DNA of 32,000 nt, taken from Candidatus Scalindua sp. GTDB taxonomy: Bacteria > Planctomycetota > Brocadiia > Brocadiales > Scalinduaceae. Below are positions 16,771 through 30,188 of the stretch, piece after piece (position 1 is the stretch's first letter; each line of letters starts with the position of its first letter). The translations under genes and the position numbers were made by a program. The stretch is taken from the NCBI GenBank assembly GCA_031316235.1, contig JALDRA010000001.1:3180001-3212000 (forward strand), written 5' to 3'. Below the pieces are notes generated by a model, which was not told the origin of the DNA, did no database searches, and saw nothing but the letters and a program-made list of their open reading frames with translations.

Positions 16771-16856
16771 TATACTCATCTCATATTGGTTTTCGGATAA
16801 TATCCGAGATACAATTGAGCGAGTATACCTTCACCAAGAGTTGGTTTTGGTTTATA
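16771..16856 (+). repeat. TATACT-ended structured repeat, copy A (short type, right arm deleted)
   Basis: Its first roughly 77 nt align with copy B (25489-) with about 5 mismatches by my manual alignment. The right stem arm is missing, and it ends GGTTTATA. Confidence 0.8.
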
Positions 16857-20754: not shown

Positions 20755-20850
20755 TATACTAAAACCTTCCTGGTTTTAGCTTTTTCTAAAAACCAAAGCC
20801 TGCTTAATGGGTATCCCCGGACAAGGCCGAGGACTTTCCCCGGACCGGTG
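20755..20850 (-). repeat. TATACT-ended structured repeat, copy F (long type, inverted, truncated or rearranged)
   Basis: TATACTAAAACCTTCCTGGTTTTAGCTTTTTCTAAAAACCAAAGCCTGCTTAATGGGTATCCCCGGACAAGGCCGAGGACTT is collinear with 25372-25460. The right boundary is uncertain. Confidence 0.75.
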
Positions 20851-23085: not shown

Positions 23086-23177
23086 CCCTGTTTGAACGAA
23101 AACTATCCATCTCCTGCGTTGCGGTAATAATTTCGTAATCCTCACGTACTTGAGTACGCTCCGGTTGGAAAAAAACA

Positions 23178-25334
23178 ATGTATGATACATTAAAAAGTGT
23201 TTTCGGTTTTCAGTCCTTCCGTCCGAATCAGGAAACCATAATAAAGAACATTCTCCAGAAAAAGGATGTTTTCGCCGTAATATCGACGGGCGGAGGCAAA
23301 TCTCTCTGTTATCAATTACCTGCTAAAATAATGGCAGGGACAACAGTGGTCATAAGTCCTCTGATATCTCTGATGAAAGACCAGGTGGATGCAGCGCTTG
23401 AAAATGGAATAGCGGCAGCCTTCATAAACAGTTCATTAAGCCGGCAGGAGATGTCAGCCGTAAACCAGAAGCTGCATAATCGTGCATTAGAGCTGCTTTA
23501 TATAGCACCTGAGCGTTTTGCAATGCCGAACTTCATCGAAGAGCTGAAAACTATTCCTCTCTCCCTCTTTGCCGTCGATGAGGCACACTGTATTTCAGAA
23601 TGGGGACACGACTTTCGCCCCGATTATCTGAGCCTGTCCAATGTAACCAGGCTCTTTCCGGATGTCCCTGTTGCAGCTTTTACGGCTACAGCAACGCCAA
23701 AGGTGCAGGACGATATTATCGATAAAATCGGACTCAGATCACCATTCATTGTCCGTGCATCCTTCAATCGGCATAATCTCTTTTATCAGGTAAAGAGAAA
23801 GAGGGAAGTGGGAGCACAGATACTGGAGTTTCTCAAGGAGTATAAAGATGACCCGGGAATAATTTATCGTACTACCCGCGATTCAGTTGTAAAGTTGTCA
23901 GAGTTTCTTATCGATAATGGTATTAAGGCATTACCCTACCATGCAGGATTGGAGGTAGATGTTCGTAAGGAGAACCAGGAGGCTTTTAGTAAGGACAAAG
24001 TGAACGTAATCGTGGCCACGGTTGCATTTGGTATGGGGATTGATAAATCAAACGTCAGGTTTGTCATCCATGCGGATTTACCGAAAAATATTGAAGGGTA
24101 TTATCAGGAAACCGGCCGTGCCGGCCGTGATGGTGAGTTGGCCAGTTGTCTCCTCTTTTTTGCCAGTCAGGACATACCGAAGATCAGGTATTTTATAGAC
24201 CAGATACCTGAAGATGAAGAGCGGTCAACTGCCATGTATAAACTGAACCAGATGGTTGCGTATGCTTCTCATTATGTTTGCAGGCGCAGGCAGCTGCTCA
24301 GCTATTTCGGTGAGGAGTATACAGCAGAAAATTGTGGGACCTGTGATGTCTGTGTCGATATGGTTGAAAAGGTAGATGCGACAACTGATGCGCAGATAGT
24401 AATGTCAGCTATTTTGCGGACAGACCAGCGTTTTGGGATCAATCATATTGTTGATATAGTAATAGGAGCCAATACGAGCCGTATCCGTGAATTGAACCAT
24501 GACGGCATTAAAACCTATGGTGCTGGTAAGCATAAAGACAAAAATCATTGGAGATTTATTGTTGACGAACTCCTGGCACAAGAGGTAATTGTTCAGGATG
24601 GAGGCCAATATCCCGTATTAAATCTAACAGCAAAAGGTTATAACATCCTCTATGGTCGGGAGACCATTTCGGCGTTAAAGAGAGAAGAGGTGAAAAAGAG
24701 GAAGAAGACTCTCAAAGGTCTTCAACTTGAGTCCTATGATGAGGTTCTTTTTGAGAGACTTCGTCTTGTCCGGATGAAATTTGCAGAGGAGCAGCAGGTG
24801 CCGCCCTACATAATCTTTTCAGACAAGGCCCTCCACGAGATGTGCGCCTTTTACCCTGTAACACCGGCAGACATGAAAAAAATCAACGGTGTGGGAGATG
24901 TCAAACTCGAAAGATATGGGAACGAATTTATCAGTGCTGTAAAAAGATATCTGAACGAAAACCCCGGCATTTCAGTTCCCGACACACAGTCCTTGTATCA
25001 ATCCGCTGATAAGCCGCAACGCAGGACAATGGGTGGCACGGTTGAGACAACCGGTAAACTTTTTAAACAGGGATTCTCGATCCATGAGATTGCAAAATCG
25101 CGGAACCTTACGGCAGCTACCATCTCCGCACACATTGAAACTCTGATAAGGGATGGCTGTGAAATTGAAATAGACCGACTCATTGACGCTGCAAAGCGAA
25201 AGGAAATTGAAAAGCTCTTTCAAGAACTCAAGACTTGGAATACCGGTCCGGTAGTTGAACATTCCAGAGGCAGGGTCAGCTATGACGAAGCAAAATTTGT
25301 TCGGGCATATGTACTTCGAAAGTCAGTGCAATAA
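23178..25334 (+). CDS. recQ: ATP-dependent DNA helicase RecQ with an extra C-terminal helix-turn-helix-like extension
   Basis: TGGGKSLCYQLPA, DEAHCISEWGHDFRPDY, VATVAFGMGIDKSNVRFVIH, QETGRAGRDG, a Zn-binding cysteine cluster (CRRR...CGTCDVC), an HRDC region, then about 120 further aa. Confidence 0.95.
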   Translation: MYDTLKSVFGFQSFRPNQETIIKNILQKKDVFAVISTGGGKSLCYQLPAKIMAGTTVVISPLISLMKDQVDAALENGIAAAFINSSLSRQEMSAVNQKLHNRALELLYIAPERFAMPNFIEELKTIPLSLFAVDEAHCISEWGHDFRPDYLSLSNVTRLFPDVPVAAFTATATPKVQDDIIDKIGLRSPFIVRASFNRHNLFYQVKRKREVGAQILEFLKEYKDDPGIIYRTTRDSVVKLSEFLIDNGIKALPYHAGLEVDVRKENQEAFSKDKVNVIVATVAFGMGIDKSNVRFVIHADLPKNIEGYYQETGRAGRDGELASCLLFFASQDIPKIRYFIDQIPEDEERSTAMYKLNQMVAYASHYVCRRRQLLSYFGEEYTAENCGTCDVCVDMVEKVDATTDAQIVMSAILRTDQRFGINHIVDIVIGANTSRIRELNHDGIKTYGAGKHKDKNHWRFIVDELLAQEVIVQDGGQYPVLNLTAKGYNILYGRETISALKREEVKKRKKTLKGLQLESYDEVLFERLRLVRMKFAEEQQVPPYIIFSDKALHEMCAFYPVTPADMKKINGVGDVKLERYGNEFISAVKRYLNENPGISVPDTQSLYQSADKPQRRTMGGTVETTGKLFKQGFSIHEIAKSRNLTAATISAHIETLIRDGCEIEIDRLIDAAKRKEIEKLFQELKTWNTGPVVEHSRGRVSYDEAKFVRAYVLRKSVQ

Positions 25335-25371
25335 GAAATTACGATTTACAAAGACCCTGCAGAATTTATCA

Positions 25372-25627
25372 TATACACTAAAACCGGTCTGGTTTTCGGT
25401 TTTTCTGAAAAACAAAGCCTGGTTAATGGTATCCCCGGACAAAACCAGACGCCGAGGACTTGTACTCGCTCCGGTTTTTCTCGAATTTTATACTCATTTC
25501 ATAATGGTTTTCGGATAAAATCCGAGATAAAATTGAGCGAGTATACCTTCACCAAGATTTGGTTTCCAGTAAAACCGAAAACCAAATCGGTTTTAGTATA
25601 TCCGAAATCCAGTATGAGATGAGTATA
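25372..25627 (-). mobile_element. TATACT-ended structured repeat, copy E (long type, inverted), interrupted by copy B
   Basis: Joining 25372-25490 to 25601-25627 gives a sequence collinear end to end with the reverse complement of copy D (30051-30188). Confidence 0.8.
25489..25600 (+). mobile_element. TATACT-ended structured repeat, copy B (short type, 112 bp), inserted inside copy E
   Basis: TATACTCAT...GGTTTTAGTATA. It differs from copy C at about 9 of 112 positions by manual alignment. It contains a TCGGAT/ATCCGA hairpin and a 10-bp stem (25556-25565 with 25579-25588). Confidence 0.85.
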
Positions 25628-25803
25628 TTTTACTTGTTTTTGCATGGTATCATGTGTAGCATAACGTGCTCAAAAGAGGTACCGTGAGACTGCAGATCCT
25701 GCACGTGATGACAGACATTTGGCAGAGCTGCTTGATAATGGTTGCATTTGCCCCGGGGCAATGGAAGATATATTTTATTTTTTCCGATGGAGATTAATTA
25801 AAT

Positions 25804-26496
25804 ATGAATATTTTAACAAAAAGAGGAAGTTGTTATGGAGTTGTTTTTGCGCTGGTTTTGGTATTTACCCTGCATGGTTGTAAAACGGCAAGCAATACCG
25901 TTATCAACGAACCCTCAACCCTGCAATCCGCATCCACACAGGCCAGCACGGAAAAAAGCGGTATTGCGGCGAAAGATGGCGGACTGAAGGAGAAAGAAGA
26001 GATTGTTACGGAAAAGAGTGACGGTGAAGGACCAGAGAAATCCAACCAGACCCAGAAAAAATCCAGGGAAGACCTTGAGAAGTATCTCTTCAATAAGTGG
26101 TCTGGTGCCTTAGGGCATGGTGGGGTTTCCGGGGGAAAGCCGGCGGAAGAGGAAGAGACTGAAAAAGAGAATGCTGACGAAAAGGTTGCTGAAGCGGAAG
26201 AAACGAAATCTTTTCCGGAGCTTGAGAAGATGGTGGTTGGTAAGTGGTTGAACGAGAAAGAGACAGAGTCAATGCAATATTTTGATGATAAAACTATAAT
26301 CATTAATAATGAAAGTACCAAGCAAACGATAAAGGGGACTTTCAGATTTACTGAAAAAGATAGTCTGACAGTCGACTTTAAGGAAGGTTTTTTGAAAGTA
26401 CCGTCAATGTCCTTCAAGATTACGATTTCCGAAAATGAGCTTACGCTGATTGGCTTAACGGATGGTGTGCCGACAATATATAAAAGAGTCAAATAG
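25804..26496 (+). CDS. hypothetical lipoprotein with an E/K-rich linker and a small beta-rich C-terminal domain
   Basis: Signal plus lipobox (FTLHGC), with GGAG upstream. An equally long antisense ORF exists but it is Ser-rich and low-complexity. Confidence 0.6.
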   Translation: MNILTKRGSCYGVVFALVLVFTLHGCKTASNTVINEPSTLQSASTQASTEKSGIAAKDGGLKEKEEIVTEKSDGEGPEKSNQTQKKSREDLEKYLFNKWSGALGHGGVSGGKPAEEEETEKENADEKVAEAEETKSFPELEKMVVGKWLNEKETESMQYFDDKTIIINNESTKQTIKGTFRFTEKDSLTVDFKEGFLKVPSMSFKITISENELTLIGLTDGVPTIYKRVK

Positions 26497-26719: not shown

Positions 26720-26831
26720 TATACTCATCTTATACTGGATTTCGGATAAAATCCGAGACAAAATTGAGCGAGTATACCTTCACCAAGATCTGGTTTCCGG
26801 TAAAACCGAAAACCAGATCGGTTGTAGTATA
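26720..26831 (+). mobile_element. TATACT-ended structured repeat, copy C (short type, 112 bp)
   Basis: Full-length counterpart of copy B, with a 10-bp stem (26787-26796 with 26810-26819). Confidence 0.85.
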
Positions 26832-26844
26832 TGTTGTAGTATAT
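26821..26844 (+). repeat. 12-bp tandem duplication (GTTGTAGTATAT x2) of the right terminus of copy C
   Basis: 26821-26832 and 26833-26844 are identical, read directly. Confidence 0.9.
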
Positions 26845-26919: not shown

Positions 26920-29892
26920 ATGGCAGAGGATAAACGAATCTTGACATTGGAAACAAGACCAAAAAAGAGGAGATGGCCCGTAATAACGGGAATTTCTGTC
27001 GGTGCCGTATTTGGTATTACAGGGATACTTGTCCTGCTCATTCCCACATTTGTTTCTACTGATATGGCGAAAAGCAGGATTATTCGTGCCATGGAAACAA
27101 ATCTGGGGCGCAAAGTGGAAGTTGATGATATCAGGATGAGCTGGTCAGATGGGGTCGATGTGAGAAATATCCTTATTAAGGAGAGGGAGGGTATCCCGGG
27201 TGATGCATTTATCAAGGTAGACAGGTTCTATTGTGACATACAGTTTTTTCCTCTCATCAGAAAACAGATACGGATACGGGAACTTATCATAGATAACCCT
27301 GAAGTAGTTGTGCACCGATATAAGCAGACGGTTTCTGATGGTGAGAGTACGACGCCAGAATCGAAACAGCCATCTGTGACAGAGAGGGTGCGCGTTCCCG
27401 AAGTCGCTGAACAACCAGTTGAAAACGATGCACTGTCGGCACTGGCTCTTCCCTTTGTCCTTGATATTGAATTAAAAGCCAAGATCAATAACGGAACATT
27501 CACATTCGTTGACCACCGGCTGCGTGAAAAAACCGTAATTCACGATTTTAATACAACGCTGAATATAGAGTCTCTGGACAAACCGATCGAACTGAAAACC
27601 GCCTTCGATATTGAGACAAAAGGGAAGACGGAACACGCGGATATCTCCCTGGATGTTTCATTGTCAAAAGATGGAGAAGTGAATCCCAGATATGCACGGG
27701 GAGCATTCAAGGCTGAGACGGGTTTTGCAAAAGCAACTGCGGATTTCGATATGGCAAGTTTCAGTGGTGAAGGTGGACAGGGCTTTGAATTTATTTCAGA
27801 TATTGATACGAAGGGGTTGACGGAAAAACTTGCAGGAATATTGGGCCTGCCTGAGGGGCTGCAGGTGGAGGGTGTCTGCAGTTCAAAAATTACGGCTCGC
27901 GGGAGTCTGGATAAATTGATAAATGTCGATGGGCGTACAGATTTTGTGAACCTCAATGTTTCGGGTGGACCCTTTAAAGATAAACCTGTTAAGGATCTCA
28001 ATATTAAACTGCTTCAAAGTGCTGATGTAGACGTGGTAAACGATCGAATCCAGATTTACCGGTTCAGTCTTGAATCTCTTTTTGCCGAAATGGGGATTAC
28101 GGGGCTTGTTACTGATCTGAGAAGTGCCGGAAATCTTGATCTGAAGATGTTCTTCCAGTGTGACATAGCCGGGATGGCAGGAGCATTAGGGGGGCTTTTA
28201 CCCCTGGATGGGGAAATTGCGGGGAAGGTACAATCAAATGTAACTCTTCAAGGCCAGCGTAACAAGCCGAGGATAGATGGCAAAACTGTTATTAAAGATC
28301 TGTTTCTCAAGAAGGAATCGTTCGGGCCTATTACCGAACCGGAAATTCTCATTACCCATAATGCAACATTAGATGCCTTTGACAAGAGTATCATCATCAG
28401 AGAGATGGGTTTGAGCACCAGTTTTGTAGAATTCGGATCTTCAGGTTCGCTTAATCATGAAAAAGAGGCTGACGTAAATGTGATTCTATCGGTAAAGAAT
28501 CTGGAAAAACTTGTGGGCAGCCTTGCAGGGATTGTGCCGCTGCCTCAGGGGTTTACGGTCAGCGGGAAAACGACTACTGAAATGAAGATAAAGGGCAGCA
28601 GAGAAAAAGGTGTCAGGATCAGTGGGAACACCGTTCTGGAAGGCGTTAATGTGGCCGGTGGTCCTCTTGAAAAGGCCAGGATTTCCAATCTCAACATGGA
28701 ACTTGTGCACGTTCTCGACCATAGCATGCCTAAAGACGAGGTAAAAATAGAACAACTGGATATTGATTCAGATTTTTTAACCATGAGATCGAAGGGCGGA
28801 GCAAAAAATTTGTCAGATGACATGGATGTTGATTACGGGGCTTCCCTGAACCTGAATCTTGAAAAGTCGACAACGCTGTTTTCAGATTTCTTTCCTGCAG
28901 GCATGTCGATGGCGGGTAAGGGGATTGTCGATTTCACCTTACGGGGGAAATTACCGGTAGATGACGCAATGTATGATGATCTGGTTTTTCAAGGAAATAT
29001 GTTCATGGAGAAGGTTGAATATATTTCAAATAATATAACAGATTTGAAAGCTCAGTTTCGTCTTGATAACGGGATTTTTAACACAGACGGTTTCACTTTT
29101 GATCTCAATGACGGAGAGGGGAAGATATCTGCTAAGGCAATTCTCTCGGAAGAGCAACCTTCATCAGAGTTTCGTCTTGATTTGATGGATGTCCTTATCA
29201 ATCAGAAGATAGACACGCTGGGGAAATTTATACCAAACCTTTCTCAACATGAAGGAGAGGTGTCCGGTACGCTGAATATGGATATTGCGGCACAGGGAAA
29301 AGGGCTTAACTGGCAAGATGAATTGAGCAGGACTCTCAGTGCTGAGGGGAATATCAGTATAAAGAATGGTTTAATAAAGGGTGACAAGGTTCTCTCCCGA
29401 ATTATCAGCGACGAGTCCTTTAAATTTGAGGAGCTGACCACACCGGTCAGGATTAAAGACGGCAAAATATTCACGGATGATCTGCAGATTAATGGAAGTA
29501 AACTTGACATCGGTTTGTCAGGGTGGACTGCTTTTGATGGGCGGATAGAATATACGGTTGAATCTGATGTTTTAGCGAGATACATCGGTGGAGATGCAGA
29601 GAATATTCTTGGTATGTTAGGAAAGGGTGTCCATCTGCCAATCATCATTACCGGCACGGTGAATAAACCAAAGGTTGCTCTTAAACTGCCGAAGTCTAAA
29701 GAAGGTTTTGGAGATCTCATAGAAGGAATTATGGGAAGTATAGGGAAATCGAAAGAGGGCGGTAAGGGAAGTGAAGGTGTTGATGGAGCGCAGGGAGAGT
29801 TAAAGACCGGTGAATCCTCAGATGAGAAAAAACCAGAAAAAAGCAGGACAGAAGAAAAGGTAGAAAAACTTCTTAAAAGCCTGTTTAAATAG
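26920..29892 (+). CDS. AsmA-family (AsmA/TamB-like) envelope protein
   Basis: N-terminal TM anchor, then an AsmA-like start (KSRIIRAMETNLGRKVEVDDIRMSW...IRIRELIIDNPEVVVHR). A long beta-rich body is followed by an AsmA_2-like C-terminus (GKIFTDDLQINGSKLDIGLSGWTAFDGRIEY) and a K/E-rich tail. Confidence 0.75.
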   Translation: MAEDKRILTLETRPKKRRWPVITGISVGAVFGITGILVLLIPTFVSTDMAKSRIIRAMETNLGRKVEVDDIRMSWSDGVDVRNILIKEREGIPGDAFIKVDRFYCDIQFFPLIRKQIRIRELIIDNPEVVVHRYKQTVSDGESTTPESKQPSVTERVRVPEVAEQPVENDALSALALPFVLDIELKAKINNGTFTFVDHRLREKTVIHDFNTTLNIESLDKPIELKTAFDIETKGKTEHADISLDVSLSKDGEVNPRYARGAFKAETGFAKATADFDMASFSGEGGQGFEFISDIDTKGLTEKLAGILGLPEGLQVEGVCSSKITARGSLDKLINVDGRTDFVNLNVSGGPFKDKPVKDLNIKLLQSADVDVVNDRIQIYRFSLESLFAEMGITGLVTDLRSAGNLDLKMFFQCDIAGMAGALGGLLPLDGEIAGKVQSNVTLQGQRNKPRIDGKTVIKDLFLKKESFGPITEPEILITHNATLDAFDKSIIIREMGLSTSFVEFGSSGSLNHEKEADVNVILSVKNLEKLVGSLAGIVPLPQGFTVSGKTTTEMKIKGSREKGVRISGNTVLEGVNVAGGPLEKARISNLNMELVHVLDHSMPKDEVKIEQLDIDSDFLTMRSKGGAKNLSDDMDVDYGASLNLNLEKSTTLFSDFFPAGMSMAGKGIVDFTLRGKLPVDDAMYDDLVFQGNMFMEKVEYISNNITDLKAQFRLDNGIFNTDGFTFDLNDGEGKISAKAILSEEQPSSEFRLDLMDVLINQKIDTLGKFIPNLSQHEGEVSGTLNMDIAAQGKGLNWQDELSRTLSAEGNISIKNGLIKGDKVLSRIISDESFKFEELTTPVRIKDGKIFTDDLQINGSKLDIGLSGWTAFDGRIEYTVESDVLARYIGGDAENILGMLGKGVHLPIIITGTVNKPKVALKLPKSKEGFGDLIEGIMGSIGKSKEGGKGSEGVDGAQGELKTGESSDEKKPEKSRTEEKVEKLLKSLFK

Positions 29893-30050
29893 TGCCTGAA
29901 CGGAGACCATACGGTTGGAAGGAAACTGTCCGGATACAAGGGAGGCTTCTTGCATGACCGGAACGAACTTGTGTCCCTGAGAACTACGGAATTATTACAG
30001 CAACCCGGCAGGTGGGCAGTCTGCGTTCAGCCACTTGATAAATTTACATC

Positions 30051-30188
30051 TATACTCATCGTATACTGGTTTTCGGATAAAACCTGAGAAAAAAACGGAG
30101 CGGGTAAAGTCCTTGGCGTCTGGTTCGGGGAAAGTGCCCGGTGCCTTTTGTCCGGGGATACCGGCAACGAGGATTTGGTTTTAGTATA
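30051..30188 (+). mobile_element. TATACT-ended structured repeat, copy D (long type, 138 bp)
   Basis: It shares the 5' roughly 30 nt and the 3' GGTTTTAGTATA with copies B and C. It carries the GC-rich module ...TGTCCGGGGATACC... that copies E and F have in reverse complement. Confidence 0.85.

Follow-up and report, generated by a model that had tools for sequence, protein, structure and literature searches.

A probable MITE-in-MITE insertion at a TA in Candidatus Scalindua, with an IS630-family transposase as likely mover

The composite of two repeat copies at 25374-25627 of the window (the whole stretch of 32,000 nucleotides of Candidatus Scalindua DNA analyzed here) is very probably a real nested MITE insertion, in which the short-type element B entered the older long-type element E, the TA at the point of entry was duplicated, and a transposase of the IS630/Tc1-mariner family would have been the driver. 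The nesting put forward in the preliminary description is borne out: the host is collinear with intact copies, the guest is full-length and bounded by TA, and the arrangement is unique among ~125 paired copies. What is gained is chiefly an entry in the catalogue, namely an abundant MITE family of Candidatus Scalindua with a probable IS630-family driver; the mechanism is textbook and involves no new principle.

Repeat Copies in the Window

The window is chromosomal, with 45% G+C, and most of its housekeeping genes are encoded on the + strand. They include genes for a sulfatase, a multihaem cytochrome/TPR protein, an RND efflux system, Mla, Tex, RecQ, AsmA-like and CvpA proteins. Neither transposase genes nor, in a tRNA scan, tRNAs were found within the 32 kb. 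Six copies of one repeat occupy intergenic gaps, namely A, F, the composite of B and E, C, and D (Table 1), and E is placed between recQ and a lipoprotein gene. At 26821-26844, the right terminus of C together with the flanking TA and T is duplicated in tandem (GTTGTAGTATAT twice), which could reflect replication slippage or a transposition footprint.

Table 1. Features of the composite, other family copies in the window, and family-1 guests at a family-2 site
Feature	Coordinates	Strand	Basis
TA flank of host E, right-type end	25374..25375	.	sequence; TA on both sides in 108/128 family copies
Host E, piece 1: right-type inverted repeat + GC-rich core + 3' half of left-end hairpin	25376..25488	-	alignment with intact copies
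Target TA, copy 1, left of guest B	25489..25490	.	single TA here in intact copies (GGATTTTATCCG)
Guest B, short-type MITE, 108 nt, TACTCAT...TTTTAGTA	25491..25598	+	identity to C and to L113/L034 copies
Target TA, copy 2, right of guest B	25599..25600	.	sequence, alignment
Host E, piece 2: 5' half of left-end hairpin + left-type inverted repeat (reverse complement TACTCATCTCATACTGGATTTCGGA)	25601..25625	-	gap-free continuation of E
TA flank of host E, left-type end	25626..25627	.	sequence; family-wide TA flanks
Copy C, intact short-type MITE with TA flanks	26720..26831	+	absent from orthologous intergenic region of SCAELEC01
Copy D, long-type variant: extra 22 nt, ~31 nt missing near right end	30051..30188	+	absent from orthologous SCAELEC01 region
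Copy A, left end + 77 nt, right part missing	16771..16847	+	93.5% identical to B over 77 nt
Copy F, right-type end + core only	20755..20830 (inner limit approximate)	-	repeat comparison
Family-1 guests at family-2 TA	L010 7587-7698; L018 6937-7049; L085 515-656; L072 1037-1218; L050 1247-1427		

Architecture of the Nest

On the + strand, the site reads ...CTCGAATTT-TA-[TACTCAT...TTTTAGTA]-TA-TCCGAAATCCAGTATGAGATGAGTATA. Excision of 25491-25600 leaves a 250-nt element, ...CTCGAATTTTATCCGAAATCCAGTATGAGATGAGTATA, and an uninterrupted allele is predicted to read ...GAATTTTATCCGAAA.... The joined E (CTCGAATTTTATCCGAAATCC versus CTCGGATTTTATCCGAAAACC) passes through the junction without a gap when aligned with any of 11 uninterrupted long copies found in other Candidatus Scalindua genomes. 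BLAST with the joined flanks, B being left out, matched ~50 uninterrupted copies across the junction, the top match being locus L013 (85.8% identity over 148 nt, E=2e-39). The collinearity with other long-type copies on which the preliminary description staked its reading is thus present. Copy D, its chosen comparator, serves this purpose poorly given its extra and missing segments (Table 1), and it is against the other copies that the restored E is collinear. Host E begins at 25374, if the TA is included, or at 25376, and not at 25372, and its terminal base is C rather than T (CACTAAAACC versus TACTAAAACC). The TA that received B is the tip of the left-end hairpin of E, TCGGA-TA-AAATTCGA. The second piece of E is 97% complementary to the left end of C.

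The guest is complete at 25489-25600 when both TAs are counted. Over 113 nt it shares 92% identity with copy C; the L113 and L034 copies of Candidatus Scalindua SCAELEC01 are closer, at 98.2% (2 of 112 bases differ). The direct repeat common to both B/E junctions is TAT (25489-91 = 25599-601), so that the frame of excision is ambiguous by 3 nt.

Truncated copies such as A and F are many, and one subfamily has a left-type end at each terminus, so 25489-25627 might also be read as one element; the composite would then consist of two elements inserted or truncated side by side, or be a recombination chimera, and B would not have inserted into E. This would demand that E end exactly at its hairpin loop and that a gap-free remainder of 27 nt lie exactly 110 nt further on. 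Moreover, the right end of B is complete, ordinary short copies match B at 98% from end to end, and the interior of elements with two left ends differs. Such an origin is very improbable, and insertion of B into E is preferred.

Slightly less probable still is an assembly artefact joining reads from different repeat copies. Independent Logan contigs from the same sample stop inside the repeat at 25442 and 25603, which leaves the junctions without independent support. However, mis-joins need long common words, whereas these junctions share 3 nt and fall at element termini and at TA, and an analogous nest (L088) is found in a long-read assembly.

The preliminary description had weighed insertion against a fixed architecture common to all copies. 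Since the arrangement occurs in only 1 of ~125 paired copies, it is an insertion. A fixed functional unit, for example a structured RNA or a regulatory module, would agree with the intergenic location and with folding above that of shuffled sequence (z = -2 to -4), but besides this count it is contradicted by the occurrence of copies in both orientations, by a scan of the whole window against Rfam that gave no covariance-model match at gathering score, and by a promoter/terminator scan of 25300-25850 that gave nothing beyond chance. It is the least probable of all the alternatives considered here.

An empty allele of the B/E locus, the comparison recommended at the outset, was not found in metagenomes, Logan contigs or SCAELEC01. 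Metagenome scans with the 230-aa downstream protein and with an E-specific 23-mer, which would detect the allele whether filled or empty, returned zero relatives and zero matches, respectively. Exact look-up of both flanking proteins retrieved only Logan contigs of 1.1 kb and 2.3 kb, both ending inside repeats. Syntenic SCAELEC01 loci share 81-88% identity with the window. The orthologous regions of that genome are without C and D, yet their intergenic DNA is too diverged for junctions to be read at base level, and the recQ-lipoprotein interval is not conserved at locus L069. This locus is syntenic with the window from ~26.5 kb on, and a MITE copy (L069 459-600) lies upstream of the point where synteny ends; no SCAELEC01 match was found for the lipoprotein gene (25804-26496, 230 aa).

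Target Site and TA Duplication

Tabulation of the flanking dinucleotides, as the preliminary description had advised, showed that 108 of 128 paired copies have TA at both ends. The bases beyond are symmetric, with A before TA in 51% and T after TA in 53%. Flanks other than TA never match each other and are thus attributed to later mutations. Paralogous empty sites in three host repeat families add to this picture: in each, the filled site differs from the empty one by the element and one extra TA. Within the family itself, the uninterrupted site TTT-TA-TCC corresponds in the window to a filled site with TA on both sides of B, and GA-TA-AAATTGAG corresponds in L088 to one with TA on both sides of a guest of the sister subfamily. 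The empty site CCTTG-TA-CCTGG of a second repeat family is filled in L010, L018, L085 and L072, and GTTAA-TA-AATTAC of a third in L070.

Duplication of TA is therefore favored over insertion without duplication beside TTTA, given the TA flanks, the single TA of the paralogous sites, the inverted-repeat ends and the match of these ends to IS630, although the wordings "TA duplicated" and "one terminal TA in the element, insertion next to TA" are formally inseparable by sequence alone. The preliminary description had held both modes to be equally compatible with the junction; duplication is indeed compatible, but family-wide flanks and empty sites tip the balance toward it. Together, the nest and the paralogous empty sites allow the exact ends (TACTCAT...TTTTAGTA) and the TA duplication to be fixed without experiment. 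In L010 and L018 the first base of the element is C, which is compatible also with a 3-nt repeat. A 3-bp duplication (TAT/TAC), considered on account of these two copies, was rejected, as T follows the right-hand TA in 53-60% of copies versus 94% before ACTCAT.

Insertion without duplication has a concrete model in HUH-type elements (IS200/IS605-like, palindrome-associated), according to which B would have entered beside TTTA/TA and one TA would be its own. The subterminal hairpins and the position of B in a hairpin loop recall such elements, and the arrangement xxxTA[TACT...AGTA]TAyyy is formally compatible with them. Against this stand the true inverted repeats, the existence of 57-nt copies made of the repeats only and of copies with two left ends, and a conservation of flanks that is limited to a symmetric TA with no one-sided target of 4-5 nt. 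The ends match IS630-family inverted repeats instead, and no Y1/HUH transposase was found next to any copy. The HUH-type route is thus very improbable, more so than an assembly artefact, and insertion with TA duplication is retained.

The MITE Family

The repeat is a MITE: it is small and non-coding, has inverted ends and a target duplication of fixed length, and occurs as at least 150 dispersed copies, some of which are absent from orthologous loci. Its 26-nt inverted ends have the form TATACTCAT-N7-TGGTTTTCGG, also written TATACT-N9/10-TGGTTTTCGG; 18 of the 26 positions are identical between left and right. Conservation has a sharp boundary at TATACT...AGTATA, with 94-98% per position. The copies lie in intergenic DNA in both orientations, measure 57-202 nt and have no coding capacity. 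They fold better than shuffled sequence, as given above, and have subterminal hairpins.

A pattern scan with ACTCATNNNATANTGGNTTTCGG, covering one genome per species, gave at least 120 stretches, nearly all from SCAELEC01, Ca. Scalindua RBC_AMX3, the long-read assembly Scalinduaceae CBDCUS01 and one Planctomycetota MAG. The few matches in other phyla all fall inside one conserved protein gene and were dismissed as chance. With nhmmer, ~150 copies were found in ~1 Mb of fetched Scalindua DNA. They form size classes of 57 nt (inverted repeats only), 112-113, 139-143, 161-167 and 177-202 nt, the longer of which carry GC-rich hairpin modules. A sister subfamily of ~181 nt has near-perfect 26-nt inverted repeats, TATACCCAT...TGGTTTTCGG, whose two ends agree at ~22 of 26 positions.

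The 57-nt copies, consisting of the two inverted repeats alone in one hairpin fold, are seen at L003 2557-2613, L003 2896-2952 and L084 2676-2732. The GC-rich hairpin modules (CCTGCCTGTGCG...CGCAGACAGG; GCCCGCCCGGCCTGTCAGCCGTTCGGACGGG) are placed precisely within two loops, CGGA^TAAAAT and CCAG^TAAAAC. Such loop-borne modules occur in many copies (e.g., L081 1543-1721, L092 1923-2122 and L023 6347-6437) and have no TA duplication, and a few similar GC-rich hairpins stand alone (L019 1806, L109 7148).

In a full-text literature search, no paper paired Scalindua with miniature inverted-repeats and none dealt with MITEs in anammox bacteria. The family is previously undescribed in Scalindua, while the kind of element is already known. 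Its repeats explain intergenic breaks in short-read assemblies of Scalindua-like organisms, and insertion polymorphisms of such MITEs could serve as strain markers.

A Candidate IS630-Family Driver

A scan for an IS630/Tc1 transposase motif, the signature YSPxLNxIE, led to L073 of Scalinduaceae CBDCUS01, in which positions 1-503 encode the C-terminal 166 residues of a DDE_3 protein. The stop codon lies within or abuts ...CCTAAAACCATTTCGTAATGAGTATA, and this repeat (reverse complement TATACTCATTACGAAATGGTTTTAGG) can be compared with the left end of the MITE, TATACTCATCTCATAATGGTTTTCGG. A MITE copy is located 800 nt from the transposase fragment, and MITE copies occur within 1 kb in CBDCUS01. 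The homologues of the L073 protein, which number in the thousands, contain PF13358 and PF13592; records from Brocadiaceae, Planctomycetota and Kuenenia list them as IS630 family transposase. In nine further contigs, L131 included, the transposase gene is immediately followed by an inverted repeat of this kind, and one of the nine stems from a marine anammox (Scalindua) enrichment metagenome. The left end of the MITE agrees with the IS630 repeat at 20-22 of 26 bases in L073 and in seven of eight compared contigs, and at 18 of 26 in L129. The latter is a complete 1.1-kb IS, both inverted repeats of which are flanked by TA, with a 342-codon frame containing one stop.

The IS630 family inserts at TA and duplicates it, as experimentally shown for ISY100 in vitro (PMC2170065), and RUP with IS630-Spn1 provides a precedent for a bacterial MITE mobilized by IS630 (PMC2229807). 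The resemblance between the MITE ends and IS630-family inverted repeats makes a transposase of this family the likely mover, as judged from sequence comparison. We infer that this transposase moved B and that the source genome carries one of its kind.

The sampled anammox IS630 copies are truncated or have in-frame stops. In two diverged copies, a TAA interrupts the frame within the N-terminal HTH region (L126 1874-1876 and L129 217-219); as the codons are different, these look like independent inactivating mutations and not like a shared recoding site. An autonomous copy bounded by two family ends was sought among 120 fetched loci and rejected in every case: the long end "pairs" enclose a group II intron (L088) or an IS110 (L095) in MITEs, or unrelated genes between separate copies. 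Likewise, a search for multi-copy ORFs gave no transposase adjoining MITE copies.

Further Nests and Neighboring Repeats

A second self-nest was found in L088, from the long-read Scalinduaceae assembly, which has a 2.9-Mb contig. At L088 390-2612 (CBDCUS010000014.1, 792001-800000), the nest has three levels: a standard MITE is broken at TA by a MITE of the sister subfamily (429-2506), and the inner MITE in turn holds a ~1.9-kb group II intron whose RVT_1+GIIM ORF is encoded on the minus strand (580-1827). In L095 (4440-6277), an IS110-family IS (DEDD_Tnp_IS110 + Transposase_20, split over two frames) occupies the GC-rich core of a MITE.

The second repeat family (family 2, the present one being family 1) is unrelated and MITE-like, with the form TAGTGTTTGAACGAAAAC...GTTTTCGTTCACGCACTA, a length of ~150 nt, TA-flanked ends and at least 55 copies in Scalindua loci. 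The window contains a partial copy between tex and recQ (23089-23166) and a diverged copy at 29886-30035 on the minus strand, 15 nt upstream of D. One of its TAs, that of CCTTG-TA-CCTGG, holds three kinds of family-1 guests (Table 1). The outer flanks of L010 and L018 differ from each other, so a composite of one MITE in another was apparently mobilized a second time as a whole.

The repeated use of one family-2 TA and the hairpin-tip TA of E hint at local hot spots. A wider proposal would be an active IS630 network of several MITE families, in which repeats, and especially hairpin-linked TAs, are preferred landing pads, nests grow to three levels (MITE in MITE with a group II intron) and IS110 is attracted as well. 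This proposal is unlikely on present evidence; if it were true, nests would act as safe harbors that shape the intergenic DNA of a slow-growing, uncultured lineage.

Proposed Events, Age and Activity

According to the proposed course of events, an old long-type copy, E (~250 nt, minus orientation), would have been resident between recQ and the lipoprotein gene. The short-type B (108 nt) would later have been cut out elsewhere and pasted into a TA of E, and the pasting would have duplicated this TA at the tip of the left-end hairpin. An IS630/Tc1-mariner-family DDE transposase may have been supplied in trans by anammox insertion sequences with closely matching inverted repeats. The identities of the two elements agree with this order: the copy closest to E is 87.5% identical to it, in contrast to the 98.2% of B, which fits a young B within an old E, as expected of a nest.

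The preliminary description had concluded that the family is, or recently was, mobile and that it can target its own sequence. Recent mobility is supported indirectly, by the closeness of B to the consensus and by identical copies at different loci in sister genomes, such as the L113/L034 pair of SCAELEC01. Present-day activity is not established, because the sampled IS copies are truncated or interrupted. Self-targeting is true and at the same time trivial, as any TA will do. A preference for the family's own sequence was also considered and dropped: 2 self-nests among ~170 copies, a number no higher than expected by chance, are no evidence of it.

Comparison with Known Systems

Overall, the Scalindua element qualifies, by the features of its sequence, as a bacterial MITE that would be mobilized by an IS630-family transposase, with RUP and the Correia elements as closest analogues. 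RUP of Streptococcus pneumoniae is ~107 bp long, intergenic and present in many copies, has IS630-like inverted repeats, inserts at TA and is often found inside other mobile elements (PMC2229807). The Scalindua family shares with RUP/IS630-Spn1 the small size, the intergenic multi-copy distribution, the IS630-like ends, the TA target and the nesting. It differs in its Planctomycetota (anammox) host and in its modular build, ranging from 57 to ~200 nt with GC-rich hairpin inserts; the likeness to RUP is one of features, and a sequence relationship is not expected. With IS630/ISY100, the common ground is L129, whose DDE_3 transposase with N-terminal HTH domains is encoded within ~1.1 kb between TA-flanked inverted repeats, whereas B and E are non-coding and would need such an IS to act in trans.

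The Correia elements, MITEs of Neisseria, are 100-160 bp long, occur in a long and a short form distinguished by an internal segment, carry 26-bp inverted repeats starting with TATA, duplicate TA and are intergenic. All of these features are shared by the Scalindua family, although the sequences are unrelated. The Correia elements have no known autonomous partner; unlike them, the Scalindua MITE has an identified candidate IS630 partner. In plants, self-insertions of Stowaway and Tourist elements yield MITE-in-MITE nests that, read as paralogous empty sites, have served to locate termini and target duplications, and such nests have been reported far less often in bacteria. The same empty-site logic is applied here, the plant hosts being eukaryotic and the present one a bacterium.
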